Shown here: one piece after another, positions 3,928 through 44,184 of the stretch | How positions within the stretch are numbered: the stretch's first letter is position 1 | How the letters are laid out: each line of letters opens with the position of its first letter | Assembly (NCBI GenBank): GCA_965207275.1 | Contig: CBDBMH010000001.1 | Location: forward strand, 970,444-1,034,443 | DNA length: 64,000 nt | Origin: Dehalococcoidia bacterium | GTDB taxonomy: Bacteria; Chloroflexota; Dehalococcoidia; Lucifugimonadales; UBA3495 | Direction of reading: 5' to 3' | Made by a program: the position numbers and the translations under genes | Notes under the pieces: model-generated | Databases searched by the model: none | What the model was told of the DNA's origin: nothing | Seen by the model: the letters and a program-made list of their open reading frames with translations, nothing else

Positions 3928-4635
3928 CTAGCGCTTTGTCGCCTTCTCGGCTGCTGCCTTAGCCTTTTGCCGGCGGCGGTCCAGGGTGCGGCGGATGTAG
4001 TCCGCGGCGTCGGGGGTTTTACAGCCCGTCTCCCCGTGGTCCACCTCCACCTTGCCGATGCGGGCGGCGGCGGTCAGCGCCTGTTGCTCCAGCCCGTCGT
4101 TGCGGATGCCGATAGCGATCAGCGCCGAGTTCATTGCGTCCCTAACCCGGTTCTTCCTGGCGTGAATTTCGCCCTCTATGGTTGCCAGGTGGGCGGTGAA
4201 GTAGGTGTCGGACAATTCCTGCTCCTTCATAGCCAGGTGGGCTACCAGGTGCCATCCGGCCCGGCCTGTCCATTCCGCTTCGGAAACAGTCCATTCTTCG
4301 CTCTTCCGCTGTGCCAGGCCCGTCTTGCCAACGAAACCGGAGAAGGCGTCGGTAATCACGTAGCTGTCCAGGTCATTCAGCCAGGCGCCCAGCAGCGATT
4401 CATCGGCCCGGCCGGGGTCGGCAACCATGGTTGCCAGCACCCTGGCATCGTGATTGCCCGTGGCCCACAGTTCCAGGGCCAGGGAATGGTCCCGCCGAAT
4501 GGCCTTGGCCAGCTTGTTGAGATTGGTGTAGCTTACCCCGAACATGTCGTCGCGGACGCCGTGGCGGGCGTACACCTTCCGATTCTGCGCGGTGCCCATT
4601 TCCTGCAATTGTTGCATCGCTTCCTGGAGGTTCAT
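3928..4635 (-). CDS. DNA alkylation repair protein (AlkD-like HEAT-repeat family)
   Basis: N-terminus MNLQEAMQQLQEMGTAQNRKVYARHGV..FGVSYTNLNKLAKAI..LALELWATGNHDARVLA matches the family pattern as I recall it. Confidence 0.7.
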   Translation of the reverse strand: MNLQEAMQQLQEMGTAQNRKVYARHGVRDDMFGVSYTNLNKLAKAIRRDHSLALELWATGNHDARVLATMVADPGRADESLLGAWLNDLDSYVITDAFSGFVGKTGLAQRKSEEWTVSEAEWTGRAGWHLVAHLAMKEQELSDTYFTAHLATIEGEIHARKNRVRDAMNSALIAIGIRNDGLEQQALTAAARIGKVEVDHGETGCKTPDAADYIRRTLDRRRQKAKAAAEKATKR

Positions 4636-13894: not shown

Positions 13895-14061
13895 AACCGA
13901 CTCCTTCCGGGGCATGGAGATTTGGCGTAAGTATAGTGTATCGACAGGGAAGAATGAAAGGCGAAGACCGGGGGTTCGCCAAACCCCCTTTCACCACCGC
14001 ACCAGGAGAAAACCCGGGCAACATTTTCAAAAAATGACCAAAAATCCGAACAGAAACCCCA

Positions 14062-14091
14062 TTGACACTATCAGAACAGCCGTTCTATACT
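14062..14091 (+). promoter_or_regulatory. Sigma-70-type promoter TTGACA-N18-TATACT
   Basis: TTGACA at 14062..14067 and TATACT at 14086..14091. Positioned 45-50 nt upstream of the 14136/14142 start codons. Confidence 0.65.
14074..14085. promoter_or_regulatory. LexA-type (Cheo) box GAACagccGTTC, perfect GAAC-N4-GTTC
   Basis: Palindrome aGAACagccGTTCt lies in the promoter spacer and abuts the -10 element. Confidence 0.6.
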
Positions 14092-14104
14092 CATCCTGCG
14101 ATTA

Positions 14105-14116
14105 GAACAAACGTTT
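14105..14116. promoter_or_regulatory. Second, imperfect LexA-type box GAACaaacGTTT; overlaps the perfect 12-bp palindrome acaaacgtttgt (14107..14118)
   Basis: One mismatch to GAAC-N4-GTTC. Located just downstream of the predicted transcription start. Confidence 0.45.
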
Positions 14117-14135
14117 GTGCAAGTAGGTGAGGGAA

Positions 14136-14471
14136 ATGACAATGACGGCAGTTTTGACAACGAACCAGGAATCCATGGACACCATACCCGAGTTTTGCCA
14201 CTACGAGGATACAGGCTGCGAGGTGTCCACCGCCTGCCTCGATTGCCCGCTGCCCCGGTGCAAATTCGACGACCCGGCGTGGTACCAGCGCAACCGCCGT
14301 CTGGCCCGGGACTTCCGGGTGATGTACACCATTCAGCAGGAGAGCCTTTCCATGGAGGAGGCGGCCGAGAGGTTTTCGGTCACAGTGCGAACCATCTTCC
14401 GCACCCTCCAACGGTGTCGCAATGCCCTGGGAACGGTGGACGGGCAGCAGCTGGAGGCCTTTGCGGCCTAA
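14136..14471 (+). CDS. Small Cys-rich protein with C-terminal helix-turn-helix (putative SOS-controlled regulator)
   Basis: N-terminal C-x6-C-x5-C-x2-C-x4-C cluster. The C-terminal segment LSMEEAAERFSVTVRTIFRTLQR looks like an HTH. Start is ambiguous among GTG 14127, ATG 14136 and ATG 14142; GGTGAGGG is the RBS. Confidence 0.55.
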   Translation: MTMTAVLTTNQESMDTIPEFCHYEDTGCEVSTACLDCPLPRCKFDDPAWYQRNRRLARDFRVMYTIQQESLSMEEAAERFSVTVRTIFRTLQRCRNALGTVDGQQLEAFAA

Positions 14472-14549
14472 TTCCCTTTAACCCTGGCGAACAAAAAATC
14501 GGGGCAGGTATGTGGCCCGCCCCGATTGTTTTACCGATATAGCGGATAG

Positions 14550-15725
14550 CTACCCTCGCGGCAGCCCAAGCCCCCGGCTGGCAATGATGTTTCGCTGTAC
14601 TTCGGAGGTGCCGGCGGCGATTTTGTGGGAGAAGCTGGTCATCCAGTGCTCCTGGATGCGGCCCCGCAGCGGCGCGAACTTGTCGTTGCGATCCAGCGCC
14701 CCGTACAGGCCCAGAATTTCCATGCCGGCGATGGTTACTCGCTGCAGGGTCTCACTGCCGAACACCTTGCTCATGGAGGCTTCCTTGTTGGGCACCAGGC
14801 CCTGTCCCTGCATCCAGGCCACGTTGTAGGCCATCAGGCGGGCGACCTCGCACTCGATATACCGGTCGGCCAGCAGGTTGCGCACCCAGGGGGTTTGCAG
14901 CATGGGTTGGCCGTTCTGGTTCGTCTCGGTAGTGTAGTTCTTTACCTCGTCCAGCAGTCGGCGGCCCATGGCCGAATAGTCGATGCCGGAGCGCTCGAAG
15001 TCCAGCAGGGTTACGGCTACGTACCAACCCCGGTTCTCTTCGCCCACAACGTTGCCCACGGGCACCCGAACGTTGTCGAAGATTATCTGGTTGAACTCGT
15101 GGCCGCCGGCCATGTTGATGATGGGCCGCACCTGGATGCCCGGCGTCTTCATGTCCACCAGGATGAAGGAAATGCCCCGGTGCTTGGGGGCGTCGGGGTC
15201 GGTGCGAGCCAGCAGCATGATCCAGTCGGCGCGGTGGCCCAGGGTGGTCCAGATCTTGGCGCCGTTGATGACGTACTCGTCGCCGTCCCGCACCGCCCGG
15301 GTGCTGAGGGAGGCCAGGTCGGAGCCGGATTCAGGTTCGCTGTAGCCCTGGCACCATTGCACCTCGCCCCGGGCCACGGGCTGGAGGTGGGCCTGTTTTT
15401 GTTCCTCGTTGCCGTGAATCATCAGGGTGGGGCCCAACATCCGGACGCCGAAGATGTCGCGGCCAGGGGCGCGCATATAGGCCAGTTCCTCGTTGTAGAT
15501 GGCCGAGCGTACGGGGGAAGCGTCTTGGCCGCCGTATTCACTGGGCCAGTGCATGGTGAGCCAGCCGTTCTGGGCCATCTTGCGGCGCATGTCCCGGGTC
15601 AGTTCCCAGTTCCACTCCTCGGGCCAGCGGCCACCGCCCTCCCAGTCCGGGGGCAGTTCCCGCTGCACAAAGTCGCGCAACTCCTGGCGAAAGGCATCGT
15701 CTTCGGGAGTAAATCTAAAGTCCAC
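14550..15725 (-). CDS. Acyl-CoA dehydrogenase
   Basis: MDFRFTPEDDAFRQELRDF N-terminus, internal W..GYSEPESGSDLASL, and C-terminal ...IAAGTSEVQRNIIA. GTG 15725 sits 5 nt after GGGGAGG. Confidence 0.9.
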   Translation of the reverse strand: MDFRFTPEDDAFRQELRDFVQRELPPDWEGGGRWPEEWNWELTRDMRRKMAQNGWLTMHWPSEYGGQDASPVRSAIYNEELAYMRAPGRDIFGVRMLGPTLMIHGNEEQKQAHLQPVARGEVQWCQGYSEPESGSDLASLSTRAVRDGDEYVINGAKIWTTLGHRADWIMLLARTDPDAPKHRGISFILVDMKTPGIQVRPIINMAGGHEFNQIIFDNVRVPVGNVVGEENRGWYVAVTLLDFERSGIDYSAMGRRLLDEVKNYTTETNQNGQPMLQTPWVRNLLADRYIECEVARLMAYNVAWMQGQGLVPNKEASMSKVFGSETLQRVTIAGMEILGLYGALDRNDKFAPLRGRIQEHWMTSFSHKIAAGTSEVQRNIIASRGLGLPRG

Positions 15726-15815
15726 GGTAACCTCCCCGATGGTTGGAGGATACTGGCCGAGACGGCCGGTATTAACATTCATAAACGCCGCTGGCAACCC
15801 GGCGGCGTTTGAGGG

Positions 15816-16052
15816 CTAAAGGTCGACCACTGGGTATGAGGTAGCACGCACTATGCCGGGAATGGTATGCACCTTCTCGGTTACCAGGATTCCCACCTGG
15901 GTAAAGTCCGCCACGTTGATGACCGCAATAACGTCGAAGGGGCCGGTTACCACGTCCGCCGATTCGATGCCCTCCACCCCGCGCAACGACGTCGCCACGT
16001 CACGGGTGGTCCCAATCGCGGTCTCCACGAGCAGAAAAGCCTTGATTGCCAT
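15816..16052 (-). CDS. Stand-alone Lrp/AsnC-type ligand-binding (RAM) domain protein
   Basis: 78 aa. AFLLVETAIG...V.GPFDVIAVINV.. matches the AsnC_trans_reg pattern. Confidence 0.7.
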   Translation of the reverse strand: MAIKAFLLVETAIGTTRDVATSLRGVEGIESADVVTGPFDVIAVINVADFTQVGILVTEKVHTIPGIVRATSYPVVDL

Positions 16053-16209
16053 TTGCTACCTCTCAACAGCGTCTATTTGGTCGTCCGGCTAATTCTAAGG
16101 CGGCCCCAAAGTAGTGTCAATTGAGCCTGTCGGATGGGTCGTGGTCTCCATTGGTGCAAATCGGCTACAATTCGTGGATAATTGAGCAAAAGCGCGTGGA
16201 GTGAGAGTC

Positions 16210-31806: not shown

Positions 31807-33627
31807 TTACGGCCTTATGGTCCAGTGGTTGTGCGGGTAGGGTTTGCCCGTGATGGGAGTCCATGCGCCGACCTTGTCGCTGGCGCCGAACACGGCTCCC
31901 GCCTCCAGCAGGGGCCCGGCCCAGAAGTCCCGGTTCAGCAGGCGGTGGAACTCGGCCATGGCCTCGTGCTGGTCCTGGAGGTCAAAGGACGAGCCGGCCT
32001 TATCCAGCAAGGGGTCCAGAATGTCCGGCAGGCGCATCATCTGCCGACGGCCTTCGGAGTGGTAGTAAATGTGGGACCCCCGGTAGGAATGCAGGCGTGT
32101 GTCGCTGCCTCGCACCGCTATCTGGTAGGGAGGCTGGTCCTTCACGATGGCTTCTATTTCGTCGTCTGTCTTGATAGCGTTATCGAAGGTCTCGCGCAGG
32201 ACTGGGCCGTCCACAACGGAGACGAAGGTGCTGAGGCCGATGGCCTCCAGGTATCCGGCAACCGCTTCCGACAGGCCCGGCTGGTCAACGAAGTCGGCGT
32301 CGCCGGAGAAGGTCAATATCTCGATCTCCTCCCCGTCGAAGCCGGCTTCCTGGATGAGCTGGGCGGCCCGGGCCGGATCGTAGGGGTGGGGGCCGATGTC
32401 ACCGGGGTATCCGATGTTGCCTTCCACCACCCAGTAGCAGCAGGCGGGAGTGGTCTGGCCGGCGTAGAGGCCATTGCCGATGGCCTCGCGGTCGATGGCG
32501 ATGGAGATTGCTTCCCTGATGCGCTTGTCATTGAAGGGATGGCCCGGCACCCATGCGTAGTTGTACCAGATCCAGGAGATGTTGGCAGCCGGCGACTGCA
32601 GCACCTGGAGATCGGCGGACTGCAGTTCCTCCACGCTGCGAACCGAGGCGGTGATCAGGTCGGCGTTGCCGCTCTTGAGCATGGCCATGCGGGTGTTGAG
32701 CTCGGCCACGTCCCATATCTGCAAAATCTTGTAGCCGGGGTTTTTCTCGTAGTGATCCTCGAAAGCCTCCATCTGGATGTACTGGCCGGGGACGCGGTCG
32801 GCCCACTTGTAGGGGCCGGACCCGACGGGCGCCTCGCGGAAGTTGTCGATGCCGCCCACACTTTCGAAATAGGCCTGGGGGAATACTACGGAACGCGGCG
32901 GAGACGCCGAGGCGAAGAAAAGGGGCAACGTTGACCGAGGTTCCTTGGTGGAAACGCTTACCGTGTTGCCCGCCACCTCAAAACCCGAACTCAGCAGCGG
33001 ACCCACTTCCAGGGCGAACCCGCCCAGGGCGTCCTCTCCCACGGCCCGAGTCCAGGTCCAGGCAACGTCCTGCGGGGTGATGTCGTCGCCGTTGTGGAAC
33101 TTCATTCCCTCACGAATGGTGAAGGTCCAGGTCAGCTGGTCCGGCGACACCTCCCAGCCGGTGGCGAAGCCGGGCGTCAGGGTGCCGTCGGGGTTCTGGC
33201 CGATGGCGTAGTCAAACACCTCGTCGTAGTAAACCTTGGTGGCGCTGTCCTGGGAGATATTGGTGTCAACTCCCTGGAAACCCAGGTAGGAGCTAACCGA
33301 GATGATGGAACCGGCGGGGTCCACCCTGCCGGGAAGCCTGCCTGACTCCGGTATTTGCACCGGCGTCGGGGTGGCCACCACAATCCTTTCTACCTCTTTC
33401 TCCACTTCGCGAATAGTTTCAATTTCTATCGGAACTTCTTTCTCCACTTCGCGAATGAGCTCAACATCTATTGGCACTTGTTTTTCCACTTCGACTTCGC
33501 GGATGGTCTCGACTTCGACCACCCGTTCAACCTCTACCACTTCCGGCGAGGCAGAGCCACACGCCACCAGCAGCATCAGGCAGAAGAGGCTTCCCAGGAT
33601 AAGCAACAATCTACTCATATAATTCAC
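31807..33627 (-). CDS. ABC transporter substrate-binding lipoprotein (family 5, peptide/nickel type) with repeated E/V/I-rich tether
   Basis: Lipobox LLVAC and the length and pattern of an SBP_bac_5 protein. First gene of the five-gene operon. Confidence 0.85.
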   Translation of the reverse strand: MNYMSRLLLILGSLFCLMLLVACGSASPEVVEVERVVEVETIREVEVEKQVPIDVELIREVEKEVPIEIETIREVEKEVERIVVATPTPVQIPESGRLPGRVDPAGSIISVSSYLGFQGVDTNISQDSATKVYYDEVFDYAIGQNPDGTLTPGFATGWEVSPDQLTWTFTIREGMKFHNGDDITPQDVAWTWTRAVGEDALGGFALEVGPLLSSGFEVAGNTVSVSTKEPRSTLPLFFASASPPRSVVFPQAYFESVGGIDNFREAPVGSGPYKWADRVPGQYIQMEAFEDHYEKNPGYKILQIWDVAELNTRMAMLKSGNADLITASVRSVEELQSADLQVLQSPAANISWIWYNYAWVPGHPFNDKRIREAISIAIDREAIGNGLYAGQTTPACCYWVVEGNIGYPGDIGPHPYDPARAAQLIQEAGFDGEEIEILTFSGDADFVDQPGLSEAVAGYLEAIGLSTFVSVVDGPVLRETFDNAIKTDDEIEAIVKDQPPYQIAVRGSDTRLHSYRGSHIYYHSEGRRQMMRLPDILDPLLDKAGSSFDLQDQHEAMAEFHRLLNRDFWAGPLLEAGAVFGASDKVGAWTPITGKPYPHNHWTIRP

Positions 33628-34170
33628 CTTTCCGTAATTGTTAGACGTGGGCCGGATGAGGAGTCCAGTTGACGTAATGAAGGATTTATATCATTCTCGC
33701 ACTGGATGTAGCGTTTTCTTTACCGGTTAATGGGCATTTCGCTAACGCGGCAATTCTGTGCGTGAAAATATAGCGCGACTCTCCGTCGCAAAGGTGGCGG
33801 GATTATACCCACCGCAAGTGTTGGTGTCAATTTGAGCTGGCAACTGCTGCAGTTCTGAGAGGAAGGCTGTTGGTCCAGCCCCGTACGTCTGTCCGGCGCA
33901 AACCGGTATCCGGAAAGGCTAACCAAAGTCGGACGCAGTTGAAATGAGGAATGCTGTTTATCCGTCAAGGCCGGTATGACGCGTATAGCTTCGGCAAGTA
34001 GGGCCGCGTCAACCTTGGGCAGTTGCGCCCGCAGCAGGTCGGTTGACAAGGGCCCCAAAGCGGGGTGGAATATGGGGTATGAGCCAGGCCGGCGATACCC
34101 GCCCACCAGCCCCTCTCACCAGGATCAGGAAGTTAAAGGATATTCATCGCGCAGTTCAAAGGAGGCCGCA

Positions 34171-40038: not shown

Positions 40039-40794
40039 TTGCCATTGTCAACTCCACGCAAGATTGCCATAGCCCTTCTGCTCGCCCTGGGCGTCCTGCT
40101 GGTCGCCGCATTCTTTCTGGTCTATTTCCGGGGGAATGATGCGGGCCAGGTGGAACTGACTTCCCCAGTTGATGAGGGTGGGGCCGGCGCCGCGTCCCGT
40201 AGTCCCGAAAATCCTGCAATAGAACCGACGCCACCACAGGTTACCTCAGAAGATGAGGTAACGGAATTGCGGGTATACGTGGCCGGCGCCGTGAAAAACC
40301 CGGGAGTGTACCCACTGGCGGCGGGGGACCGGCTGGTGGACGCGGTGGAGGCCGCCGACGGGGCCACGGAAGAAGCAGACCTGGAGGCCGTCAACCTGGC
40401 GATGCGGGTGGAGGATGAGGGGTATTACTACATCCCAGCCAGGTCGGCCGGGCCGGCATCCAATGTCGATGAGAAGGCCACAGTCGCTTTGCCACCCACC
40501 CCGCGATTTCCCCAAGCGGCGACAAACCGGCGCGCTTCCGGATCTCCTGGCGAGGCGGAAGAGTCCGGTGAAGAAGATGGCGAACCCGCCGCCCTGGTGG
40601 ACTTGAACACCGCCACCCAAGTCGAACTGGAGACGCTGCCCAGCATCGGGCCGGCACGGGCCAGGGCGATCATCGCCTACCGGCAGGAGAGCGGCCCTTT
40701 CGCCGCCGTCGATGAAATTACCGCGGTTTCGGGAATAGGGCAGGGCATTCTGGACAATCTCCAGGGTCTTATTACCGTGGGCGAGGCGCCTTAG
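40039..40794 (+). CDS. comEA: ComEA-family DNA-binding competence protein
   Basis: N-terminal TM, an SLBB-like segment VYVAGAVKNPGVYPL..GDRLVDAVEAA, and a C-terminal helix-hairpin-helix LNTATQVELETLPSIGPARARAIIAYR. Confidence 0.85.
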   Translation: MPLSTPRKIAIALLLALGVLLVAAFFLVYFRGNDAGQVELTSPVDEGGAGAASRSPENPAIEPTPPQVTSEDEVTELRVYVAGAVKNPGVYPLAAGDRLVDAVEAADGATEEADLEAVNLAMRVEDEGYYYIPARSAGPASNVDEKATVALPPTPRFPQAATNRRASGSPGEAEESGEEDGEPAALVDLNTATQVELETLPSIGPARARAIIAYRQESGPFAAVDEITAVSGIGQGILDNLQGLITVGEAP

Positions 40795-40862
40795 GTCGCC
40801 GGCGGACTTATCCCGAATCTTCCAGATAAATACTGCCGAATGACGAACTCAGGCCTGCCGGC

Positions 40863-43385
40863 ATGAAGCTGACGACACTGGCGGCGGCCTGGCTGGCGGG
40901 AATGGCCCTGGCCTATGGGTGGTACGAGGCCGACTCGATGCCCTTGCTGTTGCTGGTGGGAGTGGCGGCGGCGGTAGCATTGGCCTGCCGTTTGCTGGGG
41001 GTTGCCGCCTGGCCTGCCCTGATGGCGGCGGCTTGCCTGCTGGGGCTTTGGCGGTACGAAGTATGGCAAGCGGCTCCTCCGCCACTACTAACGGACCATG
41101 GGGGGAGTACCCACATCCGGGGCAGGGTTGAAAGCGACCCGGAGGCTACGGCCACCCGGATCAAGTTCACTCTACAGCTTACGGATATTGGGCGCCCCGG
41201 GGTTGGCGGCGAACCCGTCTGGCGGCCCAAAGATTCCAAAGCGCTGGTCTACGCCCATCCCCCGGCGGCGTTGGTGGGGCAAAGGGAGTTGCCGTACTTC
41301 CGGTACGGGGACCGGGTGGAACTGTCGGGTACACTACAGCAGCCCGAACCCATCGAGCGGTTCGACTACCCGGCCTACCTGGAGAGCCTGGGCATCTTCG
41401 GGATATTCTGGGCGCAGGACGCCGCCATCATTCCCGACACGGGGCCCGATACCGGGCCTGATACCGGGGGTGATGCCCTGGGTAGCCTTCGGGGCGCGGT
41501 GTTCGGCCTGCGCGGTAGCCTGGCCCGGGGCCTGGACAACTCCCTGCCGCCGACGGAAGGGGCGCTGGCCGAGGCCCTGCTGCTGGGGTTGCGAGGGCAA
41601 TTGCCCGATTCGGTGAGGGAAGACTTCCGGCAATCAGGCACGTCGCACCTGCTGGCCATTTCGGGTCTGCACCTGGGCATCCTGCTGCTGATGACGGTGG
41701 GTCTGTTGAACTGGGCGCTGGGCCGGCATACGTGTATTCCCGTGCTACTGGCCCTGGCAGCAGTGTGGCTGTACGTGCTGGTCAGCGGGGCGCCGGTGTC
41801 GGTGGTGCGAGCGGCGTTGATGGGCAGCGTATACCTGGCGGCGCTGGGCCTGGGTCGGCCCCGGGAGTCGCTGCTGCCGGCCCTGGCGCTGAGCGCGGTG
41901 GCGATGACCGCCACGGACCCGGGGGCGGCCTCCCGCATTTCCTTCCAGCTCAGCTTCGCGGCAATGGCAGGCATTGCGCTGGCCCTGCCCTGGCAGGAGG
42001 CCCTGTCCCGCAGCATTGCCGGGCGGTTTGAACGGACGGGCTGGCGGTGGGCGCCATTCGGCGGAACCGCAGCGGGGTGGCTGGCGTCGGGTGTCCTGAT
42101 TTCGGCGGCGGCCACTCTGGCCACCTTTCCCCTGGTGGCCCTGAATTTTGGGAGGCTGCCCCTGCTGGGAATACCGGCCACCGTCGTGGCAACGCCCCTG
42201 CTCCCCTTTGCCCTGGCTGGCGGGCTGGCGTCGGCGGCGGCGGGAATGGTCCATCCCACCCTGGGGCAACTGGTGGGTCTGCCCGCGTCGATGCCGTTGA
42301 TCGCGTTGATGGCGCTGGTGGACGCAGTACCCAAGTGGGCGGTGGAGCTGGATAGGGTGGATACCGGGTGGCTGTGGGCCTGGTACGGCGTGCTGCTGGG
42401 AACGCTGACGCTGGCGGACACGCGATGGTACCGGATTGGCGGGTTGCGGAGATTGAATCGAGTTTTGGGCGTGGGCGGAGGACCGACGCAAGCAAACACG
42501 GGAGTGGCGCAATCGGGGGCTTACCTGGCCCTGGGCGGAATAGGGCTGGCGCTGGCGGCAGCCTTGCTTCTCTTGCTAGCGGGGGTGTGGGACAGGGCCG
42601 ACGGCCGGCTGCACGTTTACTTTCTCGACGTGGGTCAGGGCGACGCCGTTTACATCGTTACCCCCACGGGGAAGCAGGCGCTGGTGGACGGCGGTCCGGA
42701 GTTTGGCGGCGCGGCGCGGGCTCTGTCCGAACGCCTGCCGCCCTGGGACCGCACCCTCGACCTGGTGGCGTCAACTCACCTGGACGTGGACCACAGCCGG
42801 GGCTTGCTGCAGGTTTTGGAACGGTACCAGACGGGGGCCGTAGTCGCGGGATTGCCCGACCCGGAGAGCCACCTGCACCCCCAGTGGCGAAAGGCGGTGG
42901 AGAGGGGGAACCACAGTCTGGTGCACCTGTCCTCAGGCCAGGAACTAACGCTGGACGAAGGTGTTACCCTGGCTGCGCTGCACCCGCCGGTCGTTCCATT
43001 GCGGGGGCCGGCGTGGGATTCCAACAACAACAGCCTGGTGCTGCGCCTTTCCTACGGCGAGATCAGCTTTCTGTTGACCGGGGATATTGAGGAGGAGGCC
43101 GAGCGTTACCTGGCCGGCACGGCGTCGGGCCTGGAGAGCGATGTTCTGAAGGCCGGGCACCACGGCAGCAGGTCTTCCACCACGGCGGCCTTCCTGCGGG
43201 CCGTCGATCCCCGTTGGGCCGTCATTTCCGCCGGGGCGGAAAACCAGTACGGGCACCCCCACGCCGACGTGGTTGACCGGCTGGAGGATACGGTGGGTGA
43301 AACCAATGTTTTCAGCACCGCCACTCAGGGTACGGTACACTTCACCACCGACGGCCAGCGGTTGTGGGTGGAGACGGAGCGGTGA
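40863..43385 (+). CDS. comEC: ComEC/Rec2 DNA internalization protein with C-terminal metallo-beta-lactamase domain
   Basis: Polytopic competence domain (GTSHLLAISGLHLG). The C-terminal region has VYFLDVGQGDA... and ...HLDVDH...GHHGS. Confidence 0.9.
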   Translation: MKLTTLAAAWLAGMALAYGWYEADSMPLLLLVGVAAAVALACRLLGVAAWPALMAAACLLGLWRYEVWQAAPPPLLTDHGGSTHIRGRVESDPEATATRIKFTLQLTDIGRPGVGGEPVWRPKDSKALVYAHPPAALVGQRELPYFRYGDRVELSGTLQQPEPIERFDYPAYLESLGIFGIFWAQDAAIIPDTGPDTGPDTGGDALGSLRGAVFGLRGSLARGLDNSLPPTEGALAEALLLGLRGQLPDSVREDFRQSGTSHLLAISGLHLGILLLMTVGLLNWALGRHTCIPVLLALAAVWLYVLVSGAPVSVVRAALMGSVYLAALGLGRPRESLLPALALSAVAMTATDPGAASRISFQLSFAAMAGIALALPWQEALSRSIAGRFERTGWRWAPFGGTAAGWLASGVLISAAATLATFPLVALNFGRLPLLGIPATVVATPLLPFALAGGLASAAAGMVHPTLGQLVGLPASMPLIALMALVDAVPKWAVELDRVDTGWLWAWYGVLLGTLTLADTRWYRIGGLRRLNRVLGVGGGPTQANTGVAQSGAYLALGGIGLALAAALLLLLAGVWDRADGRLHVYFLDVGQGDAVYIVTPTGKQALVDGGPEFGGAARALSERLPPWDRTLDLVASTHLDVDHSRGLLQVLERYQTGAVVAGLPDPESHLHPQWRKAVERGNHSLVHLSSGQELTLDEGVTLAALHPPVVPLRGPAWDSNNNSLVLRLSYGEISFLLTGDIEEEAERYLAGTASGLESDVLKAGHHGSRSSTTAAFLRAVDPRWAVISAGAENQYGHPHADVVDRLEDTVGETNVFSTATQGTVHFTTDGQRLWVETER

Positions 43386-43440: not shown

Positions 43441-44184
43441 GTGAGTAATTTGGCAAGACTTGACGGACGGCGGTGGGACGAGCCCCGTCCCATTACCATA
43501 ACCCCGGGCTACCAGCGGTTCGCAGAGGGTTCGGCGCTGATTGAAACAGGGCTGACCCGGGTGCTGTGCGCCGCGTCGCTGGAGGAGCGGGTGCCCCCGT
43601 TCCTGCGAGGCCAGGGACGGGGATGGGTTACGGCCGAGTACAACATGCTTCCCCGCTCCACCAACACGCGCACCGCCCGGGACCGAGATGCGGGGAGAAT
43701 CAGCGGCCGTTCCCAGGAAATCCAGCGGCTCATCGGGCGCGCCCTGCGGTCGGTAACGGATATGGAGGCCCTGGGCGAGCGTACCGTTACAATCGACTGC
43801 GACGTGCTGCAGGCCGACGGGGGCACTCGCACCGCGTCCATTACCGGGGCCTACGTGGCCCTGCGCCAGGCGATGCAGGCGCTGGTGGACAACCGGGCGC
43901 TGCGCCGGGCGCCCCTGCACAGCGGGGTGGCAGCCGTGAGCGTGGGCCTTGTGGAGGGCGACCTGCTGCTGGACCTGTGCTACCAGGAGGACTTTGACGC
44001 GCAGGTTGACTTCAACGTGGTGATGACGGACCGGGGGCAACTGGTGGAATTGCAGGGAGCCACCGAGGGCGCACCTTTCCCCCGCCACCGGGCGGAGGAG
44101 GCGCTGGCCCTGGCGGCGAGGGGCATGGAACCGTTGTTCGCGGCGCAGAGAGCGGCGTTACGGGAGGCGGGGGTCAAGGGTTGA
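43441..44184 (+). CDS. rph: Ribonuclease PH
   Basis: RLDGRRWDEPRPI, GSALIETGLTRVLCAAS, and AEYNMLPRST. GTG start. Confidence 0.9.
   Translation: MSNLARLDGRRWDEPRPITITPGYQRFAEGSALIETGLTRVLCAASLEERVPPFLRGQGRGWVTAEYNMLPRSTNTRTARDRDAGRISGRSQEIQRLIGRALRSVTDMEALGERTVTIDCDVLQADGGTRTASITGAYVALRQAMQALVDNRALRRAPLHSGVAAVSVGLVEGDLLLDLCYQEDFDAQVDFNVVMTDRGQLVELQGATEGAPFPRHRAEEALALAARGMEPLFAAQRAALREAGVKG

Follow-up and report, generated by a model that had tools for sequence, protein, structure and literature searches.

A conserved operator of the LexA-box type overlaps the promoter of a gene for a small cysteine-cluster helix-turn-helix protein in Dehalococcoidia

The locus under study lies in a 64,000-nucleotide (nt) stretch of the genome of a Dehalococcoidia bacterium (phylum Chloroflexota; assembly GCA_965207275.1, contig CBDBMH010000001.1, positions 970,444 to 1,034,443), referred to here in its entirety as the window. 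Between positions 14040 and 14471, a sigma-70-type promoter and two boxes related to the palindrome GAAC-N4-GTTC precede a gene for a protein of 111 amino acids (aa), which carries a cluster of four cysteines (Cys4) and a helix-turn-helix (HTH). The features are given below, together with their state in relatives.

14040-14051, plus strand: degenerate upstream box remnant AAAAatccGAAC, with a GAAC half-site at 14048-14051; aligns with box 0 of relatives.
14062-14067, plus strand: -35 hexamer TTGACA; TTGACA in 64/80 orthologous promoters and TTGACN in 80/80.
14074-14085 (core), plus strand: box 1, a perfect GAACagccGTTC palindrome that occupies the promoter spacer and abuts the -10 hexamer.
14086-14091, plus strand: -10 hexamer TATACT, separated from the -35 hexamer by an 18-nt spacer; TATACT, TATAAT, TAAACT or TAAATT in relatives.
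14105-14116, plus strand: box 2, GAACaaacGTTT, spanning about +7 to +19 relative to the predicted transcription start and 31 base pairs (bp) after box 1.
14125-14133, plus strand: ribosome-binding site AGGTGAGGG; GGAG or GGTGAG at the same spot in relatives.
14136 (ATG) to 14469-14471 (stop), plus strand: gene for the 111-aa protein, with Cys4 residues C28, C34, C37 and C42, an HTH at about residues 47-100 and the tail AFAA.

In a consensus scan, the TTGACA/TATACT promoter matched the consensus at 11 of 12 positions. With its flanking bases box 1 reads aGAACagccGTTCt (14073-14086), and its right half-site contacts the -10 hexamer. Box 2, which has one mismatch (GTTT), is placed 5' of the ribosome-binding site and overlaps a perfect 12-bp palindrome, ACAAACGTTTGT (14107-14118). 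In the remnant at 14040-14051 the right half is GAAC instead of GTTC, which repeats the left half of box 1 in direct orientation, and this remnant is probably non-functional in the window. No known RNA element was matched in the leader of the 111-aa gene. The original prediction for this DNA, made from its letters, had described the promoter, the spacer palindrome, the second box and the downstream gene, and all of their coordinates were verified on the sequence. It had also called this promoter the best in the window, which was wrong: a 12/12 match was found at 33830 (minus strand) and an equal 11/12 match at 16120 (minus strand). The former (TTGACA, 17 nt, TATAAT; 33830 to 33802) is a perfect sigma-70 consensus and the strongest promoter-like site in the window, and it sits 5' of a gene for a family-5 solute-binding protein (31807-33627, minus strand). 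The latter (TTGACA-17-TAGAAT; 16120-16092) lies upstream of an AsnC-type gene and a gene for a pimC-like acyl-CoA dehydrogenase.

The window contains 26 sites that match GAAC-N4-GTTC with no more than one mismatch, compared with 20.4 +/- 4.6 expected. The perfect form was found twice; the second copy, at 44128, is internal to the RNase PH gene, and it was dropped as an operator candidate and taken as a chance match. The motif count inside the window alone is no higher than chance. The significance of the boxes was drawn from comparison across genomes. A one-genome-per-species scan identified 160 genomes with a relative of the 111-aa protein, from which the best 80 loci were taken and 1.53 Mb of sequence was fetched. 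These best 80 loci were all labelled Dehalococcoidia, Chloroflexota or SAR202, with a protein identity of 53-87%. The gene is present on complete chromosomes such as OZ219949.1, OY761558.1, OZ244885.1 and OZ244136.1. The promoters of the window and of 79 loci were anchored on the -10 hexamer and compared (80 promoters, 79 of them distinct), one locus (L035) being left out for its short upstream sequence.

A common layout was observed in 80/80 promoters: an A-rich segment, TTGACN, 6 nt, GAAC-N4-GTTC, TAnAnT, about 13-16 nt, TTAGAAC-N4-GTTT, GGAG and ATG. The position of box 1 was constant throughout the 80 loci; 60 copies were perfect and 20 had one mismatch, with 37 different N4 spacers. Box 2 was the one-mismatch form GAAC-N4-GTTT in 72/80 loci, with 32 N4 variants, and the start-to-start distance between the two boxes was 30-33 bp, or three helical turns, in 71/80. 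Many lineages carried a third box, TTAGAA(C/A)-N4-GTTC, which begins 33 or 43-44 bp ahead of box 1. N4 spacers and flanks drifted across the 80 loci while the positions of the boxes stayed fixed. Within the 1.53 Mb, this gene's promoter accounted for 65 of the 80 perfect GAAC-N4-GTTC sites and for 170 of the 184 matches of >=13 bits to a 16-nt weight matrix. RsmG, the product of an adjacent gene, is 49-83% identical among these genomes, and the boxes are taken to be functional because unconstrained intergenic DNA would be randomised at such divergence. Chance palindromes in an ordinary promoter, devoid of operator function, would agree with the motif count in the window, which is not elevated; this explanation has a negligible probability, refuted as it is by position-specific conservation in 80 genomes despite variable spacers and flanks. 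Judged from these alignments, the palindromes form an operator that is functional and strongly conserved, and that overlaps a strong promoter.

In one sub-clade (L050, L053-L055, L058-L061, L065, L067, L069, L070, L073, L074, L077 and L079), box 1 was GTAC-N4-GTTC, a variant known from cyanobacterial LexA boxes, and the -10 hexamer was TAAATT. These promoters kept the TTAGAAC-N4-GTTT box 2 and an upstream TTAGAAC half-site.

The motif consensus across the 80 loci was GAAC-RNNY-GTT(C/T). Purines made up 79% of the first spacer bases in box 1 and 100% in box 2, and pyrimidines 91% and 89% of the fourth spacer bases, respectively; the consensus extended to TTAGAAC-N4-GTTCTAA, with A...T as flanking bases. 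The Cheo box, the LexA box of Bacillus, is CGAACRNRYGTTYC, whose GTTY permits GTTT. In the same class, LexA of Dehalococcoides ethenogenes reportedly binds GAAC-N4-GTTC, as described in 2002. As in the Cheo box, the sites studied here comprise a 12-bp GAAC-N4-GTTC palindrome with a preference for R...Y in the spacer, and in 80/80 loci they are placed where they would block the promoter, with box 1 inside the -35/-10 spacer and box 2 over roughly +7 to +19. The view that the operator is of the LexA-box type of Gram-positive bacteria and Chloroflexi was borne out by the GAAC-N4-GTTC core and R...Y spacer across the 80 loci. Because the motif is identical to the reported LexA box, LexA is a likely repressor acting on these boxes, and the locus is probably a switch controlled by DNA damage. 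Relatives at 39-41% protein identity also keep boxes (AGAACgtatATTCT in the spacer of L203, three boxes in L208), and their retention despite protein divergence fits a constant trans-acting factor.

The gene itself has a G+C content by codon position of 0.57/0.46/0.79, typical for the genes of the window. Its close homologues numbered 281, all of about 110 aa and none functionally annotated at source; the few organism labels shown were Dehalococcoidia. Alignment of 30 close relatives revealed 30 invariant positions, including C28, C34, C37, C42 and C94. The pattern C28-x5-C34-x2-C37-x4-C42 was present in 120/120 close and 142/149 distant relatives. C21 was present in 34/120 close relatives and was mostly replaced by Tyr or Phe in the others. 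Thus, of the small Cys-rich HTH protein originally described, the length of about 110 aa (111 aa), the C-terminal HTH and four invariant cysteines stood, and the fifth cysteine (C21) proved not to be conserved. When 1.84 billion representative proteins were searched with a profile, 2450 clusters, formed at 50% identity, were returned with E<=0.001, including 732 at E<=1e-10. Members of this wider family are about 100 aa long, the matches cover both the cysteine motif and the HTH, and G27, C28, C34, C37, C42 and R85 were invariant in a 30-sequence sample.

The product had no significant match in Pfam, NCBIfam or PHROG, in agreement with the earlier remark that it was not recognised as any known SOS gene. 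Weak matches were obtained to Sigma70_r4_2 (18.7 bits, compared with a Pfam cut-off of 25.7), to YlxM and to a PHROG late transcriptional activator (E 0.002). An AlphaFold model built on a 150-sequence alignment reached a pLDDT (predicted local distance difference test) of 82-96 over residues 21-100, and consisted of a Cys4 segment with little helix and, C-terminal to it, helices at 47-69, 73-80 and 84-100. Foldseek searches of PDB and BFVD returned generic sigma-region-4, LuxR, Lrp-N and YlxM HTH domains, all with E >0.2; the best of these had template-modelling scores of about 0.6-0.7 on the target and a root-mean-square deviation of 1-2 A over about 40 residues. The N-terminal Cys4 module matched no solved structural counterpart, and sequence profiles of the PDB and tblastn of cultured phages and plasmids gave generic HTH likeness or nothing. 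The C-terminus was Ala-Ala in 73/120 close relatives, a tail that is rare in distant relatives, and it could be an ssrA-like ClpXP tag. We regard the product as a transcription factor because it is predicted to be soluble and to bind DNA through a sigma-region-4-like domain, and because phages carry relatives of it; the suggestion that it is a checkpoint or division regulator was not supported. The redox- or metal-sensing role that was also suggested may apply, given the four invariant cysteines. LexA-type operated promoters are a known kind of system, whereas the gene under control here and its family had not been described before.

Building on the anatomy, the conservation and the HTH fold of the locus, we infer a mechanism that extends to the binder, its response to damage, the metal, the stability of the product and its targets. 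A dimeric repressor, most likely LexA, would occupy box 1, and RNA polymerase would be excluded because this box fills the spacer between the -35 and -10 hexamers. The repressor would also bind box 2, just past the transcription start and directly 5' of the ribosome-binding site, and in many relatives it would additionally occupy the third box 5' of the -35 hexamer. Given spacings of three or four helical turns between boxes, bound dimers would lie on the same face of the DNA, where mutual reinforcement is possible. After DNA damage, LexA would cleave itself under stimulation by RecA, which would clear the near-consensus promoter and permit a burst of the 111-aa product. This product would be a small transcription factor in which the Cys4 residues form a metal site (Zn or Fe-S) and the sigma-region-4/Mor-like HTH contacts DNA. 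Its lifetime may be shortened by the conserved C-terminal Ala-Ala(-Asp) tail, and it would then switch a second tier of genes on or off. Taken as a whole, this explanation, in which an SOS-repressed strong promoter drives a single-gene transcript for a second-tier transcription factor, is the one we favour, with moderate confidence.

Several observations weigh against this explanation. tblastn searches of the window and the 80 loci with LexA, RecA, UvrA, UvrB, DinB, RuvB, SSB and UvrD of E. coli and B. subtilis produced only weak ATPase or helicase matches, and no lexA, recA, uvrA, uvrB, dinB or ruvB was detected in the window or the fetched loci. No other gene in the 1.53 Mb carries the motif, as autoregulation also predicts. 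The flanks are A...T (TTAGAAC...GTTCTAA), compared with C...G in the Bacillus box. The C-terminus was AAD in 40/120 close relatives, which weakens the idea of a degradation tag. Finally, the depth of RNA contigs over the gene, a poor measure of expression, was 7.6-13 in two metatranscriptomes and similar to that of the neighbours, which suggests that transcription of the gene occurs in nature. An RNA contig of 372 nt from a related strain, found in one marine metatranscriptome, mapped to 14108-14477, from just past the start of the transcript, predicted near 14097-14099, to the stop; in a second metatranscriptome, a low-depth contig ran through the promoter and could be DNA. Sequencing runs located the window's organism in sponge samples.

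Searches beyond the fetched loci were also performed. No Chloroflexota LexA on plasmids was found among the 120 matches listed (tblastn of LexA against PLSDB). The pattern TTAGAACNNNNGTTCTAA had low specificity on viral contigs, where those matches listed were arbitrary. Apart from the 2002 report, literature searches covering Chloroflexi, Chloroflexota and SAR202 turned up no account of LexA motifs or regulons. Within the window, a matrix scan detected no GAAC-type box at the AlkD-like DNA-alkylation repair gene (3928-4635, minus strand) or at the comEA-comEC pair (40039-43385).

The divergent flanks bear on a second candidate for the binder, a different lineage-specific repressor such as a Dehalococcoidia stress regulator with a GAAC-type palindrome, since TTAGAAC-N4-GTTCTAA is unlike the LexA box of either Bacillus or Mycobacterium. 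The specificity reported for Dehalococcoides LexA is precisely that of the present boxes, and we know of no other regulator with GAAC-N4-GTTC; operators of Rex, HrcA (CIRCE), the Fur family and NrdR differ in half-site or spacing. Such a repressor is improbable.

The near confinement of the motif within 1.53 Mb to this gene's own promoter is also what would be seen if the 111-aa protein were an autorepressor, binding GAAC-N4-GTT(C/T) as a dimer and receiving a redox, iron or zinc signal through its Cys4 residues. The product is a predicted DNA binder with an invariant recognition-helix core, R85-T-x-F-R, its four invariant cysteines would suit a sensor, and the gene is transcribed in natural samples. 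However, the motif, including its R...Y spacer, is the same as the LexA box, and two regulators are unlikely to share one operator in a cell if the LexA of this class does bind GAAC-N4-GTTC. The phage-borne relatives L204-L207 keep the R-T-x-F-R core, yet their surroundings of 6-12 kb contain no such sites, and the boxes persist where protein identity has fallen to 39-41%. In addition, the predicted model lacks an obvious dimerisation domain. Autorepression is thus unlikely, if somewhat less so than control by another lineage-specific repressor, and repression by LexA remains the preferred reading.

Compared with known systems, the promoter resembles the Cheo-box promoters of B. subtilis lexA/yneA and recA and the LexA box reported for Dehalococcoides ethenogenes in its GAAC-N4-GTTC core, its R...Y spacer and its tolerance of GTTT. 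It also resembles multi-box LexA promoters, in which two or three boxes at whole-turn spacing lie over a strong sigma-70-type promoter and the transcript start. In contrast to Gram-positive Cheo-box promoters, the boxes here have TTA...TAA flanks instead of C...G, the gene downstream is none of the known SOS genes, and the role of LexA is proposed from the motif. As a small single-gene unit with a tightly operated strong promoter and a product that may be short-lived, the locus is reminiscent of SulA, YneA, SidA, DivS, SosA and ChiZ, which are FtsZ binders or small membrane or LysM division blockers. An SOS division inhibitor of the SulA or YneA type was considered and rejected: the product had no SulA, LysM or membrane match in Pfam or NCBIfam, and its model is a soluble HTH with a Cys4 loop.

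The product shares with the Mor/C proteins of phage Mu a size of about 100-130 aa, a C-terminal HTH and the pattern R-D-x-x-I...L...(F/Y)-x-V-(T/S)-x-x-T-(V/I)-(F/Y)-(R/K), and, like the small HTH activators of phages, its family has members within phage gene arrays. Unlike the product, Mor has no cysteine cluster, and the copy in the window is chromosomal, with neighbours kept across the class. Membership in Mor/C was rejected, as the best comparison (1rr7) gave E 0.2 over 43 residues, Pfam yielded no Mor match and Foldseek did not return Mor. The WhiB-like (Wbl) iron-sulfur proteins of Actinobacteria offer another likeness, being about 100 aa long with four invariant cysteines followed by Trp and a basic part that contacts DNA or RNA polymerase, and occurring on the chromosomes and phages of one phylum. 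Unlike WhiB, which is marked by the pattern C-Xn-C-X2-C-X5-C and a G(V/I)WGG turn, the product has C-x5-C-x2-C-x4-C and a true HTH. Kinship was rejected, with no Pfam Whib match at E up to 10 and an hhalign probability of 0.4% against WhiB1; WhiB-like proteins are at most an analogue. The best fold matches of the product were the three-helix domains of sigma-70 region 4, YlxM and LuxR. A sigma-70 or extracytoplasmic-function sigma factor was excluded because region 2 is absent; the Sigma70_r4_2 score fell below its cut-off, and the protein has only 111 aa.

The Dehalococcoidia, including SAR202 and sponge symbionts, are abundant and mostly uncultured, and their gene regulation is almost unknown. 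A class-wide, cleanly defined operator can seed the reconstruction of SOS regulons from whole genomes, and the addition of a regulator to the regulon would imply a cascade. The locus also provides a handle on a large unnamed family of Cys4 HTH proteins of Chloroflexota chromosomes and phages. If LexA binds here, this promoter, with its two or three boxes, would be among the most heavily operated of the group's SOS genes, and a heavy operator load usually marks a product that needs to stay tightly off. A more far-reaching possibility, which we hold to be speculative and rather unlikely, is that the class possesses a dedicated second tier of the DNA-damage response in the form of a phage-related factor with a metal cluster and a sigma-region-4-like domain under triple LexA control, with paralogues serving as middle or late activators of Chloroflexota phages, as an independent analogue of WhiB. 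If so, the host copy could couple DNA damage, and possibly redox state or iron via Cys4, to host and prophage programmes.

Downstream of the gene, the following features were found.

14497-14527, no strand assigned: G+C-rich hairpin, a likely two-way terminator, after which the plus strand reads TTGTTTT and the minus strand is T-rich.
14550-16120, minus strand: 78-aa AsnC-type gene and pimC-like acyl-CoA dehydrogenase gene.

The 74-nt segment at 14472-14545, with a 9+3-bp stem, folds at -24.8 kcal/mol, and the hairpin separates the 111-aa gene from the convergent acyl-CoA dehydrogenase gene. The 111-aa gene is a single-gene transcription unit. The downstream neighbours, encoding the acyl-CoA dehydrogenase, the 78-aa AsnC-type ligand-domain protein, RsmG and an epimerase, were kept in about 65/80 loci; upstream neighbours varied among the 80. 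The conservation of the downstream neighbours points to a vertically inherited core gene and not to a prophage remnant. The pimC-like acyl-CoA dehydrogenase was 74-98% identical across the class, far above the 49-83% of RsmG, and its gene was always convergent with that of the regulator. An AidB-like role in DNA damage was rejected for this dehydrogenase, which is pimC-like.

Distant family members were found in co-directional phage or mobile-element arrays together with a D5-type primase-helicase, an integrase, ThyX, dCTP deaminase, ArdC and UvrD-like helicases, and one 4.45-Mb genome contained both a core copy (P0097) and a phage-array copy (P0194). P0194 (97 aa; L201 and L202, 6001-6294) lies in an array with SNF2 and UvrD-like helicases, a Mom-like protein and DUF5131. 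A box-like AAAC-N4-GTTT (16 bits) occurs at position 3310 of L202, in a 650-bp gap 5' of the helicase operon. On an IMG/VR contig (L207, 4776-5276), a 38%-identical relative was encoded between the genes for a minor tail protein and an endolysin, and other relatives (L204, L205) adjoin genes of phage replication and nucleotide metabolism.

Two further observations concern the surroundings of the core gene. On contig CBDFLW010000004.1 (4.07 Mb), the block of regulator, dehydrogenase, AsnC-type gene and rsmG occurs twice, 3 Mb apart (L060 and L073), as the result of an extensive duplication or of a chimeric assembly that joins two strains. In a close relative (L200, 895-3100), Nmad2 and two ThsB-type TIR genes, which are defence-like, lie beside selB about 7 kb upstream of the regulator; their place is taken in the window by DUF433 and DUF5615 genes.

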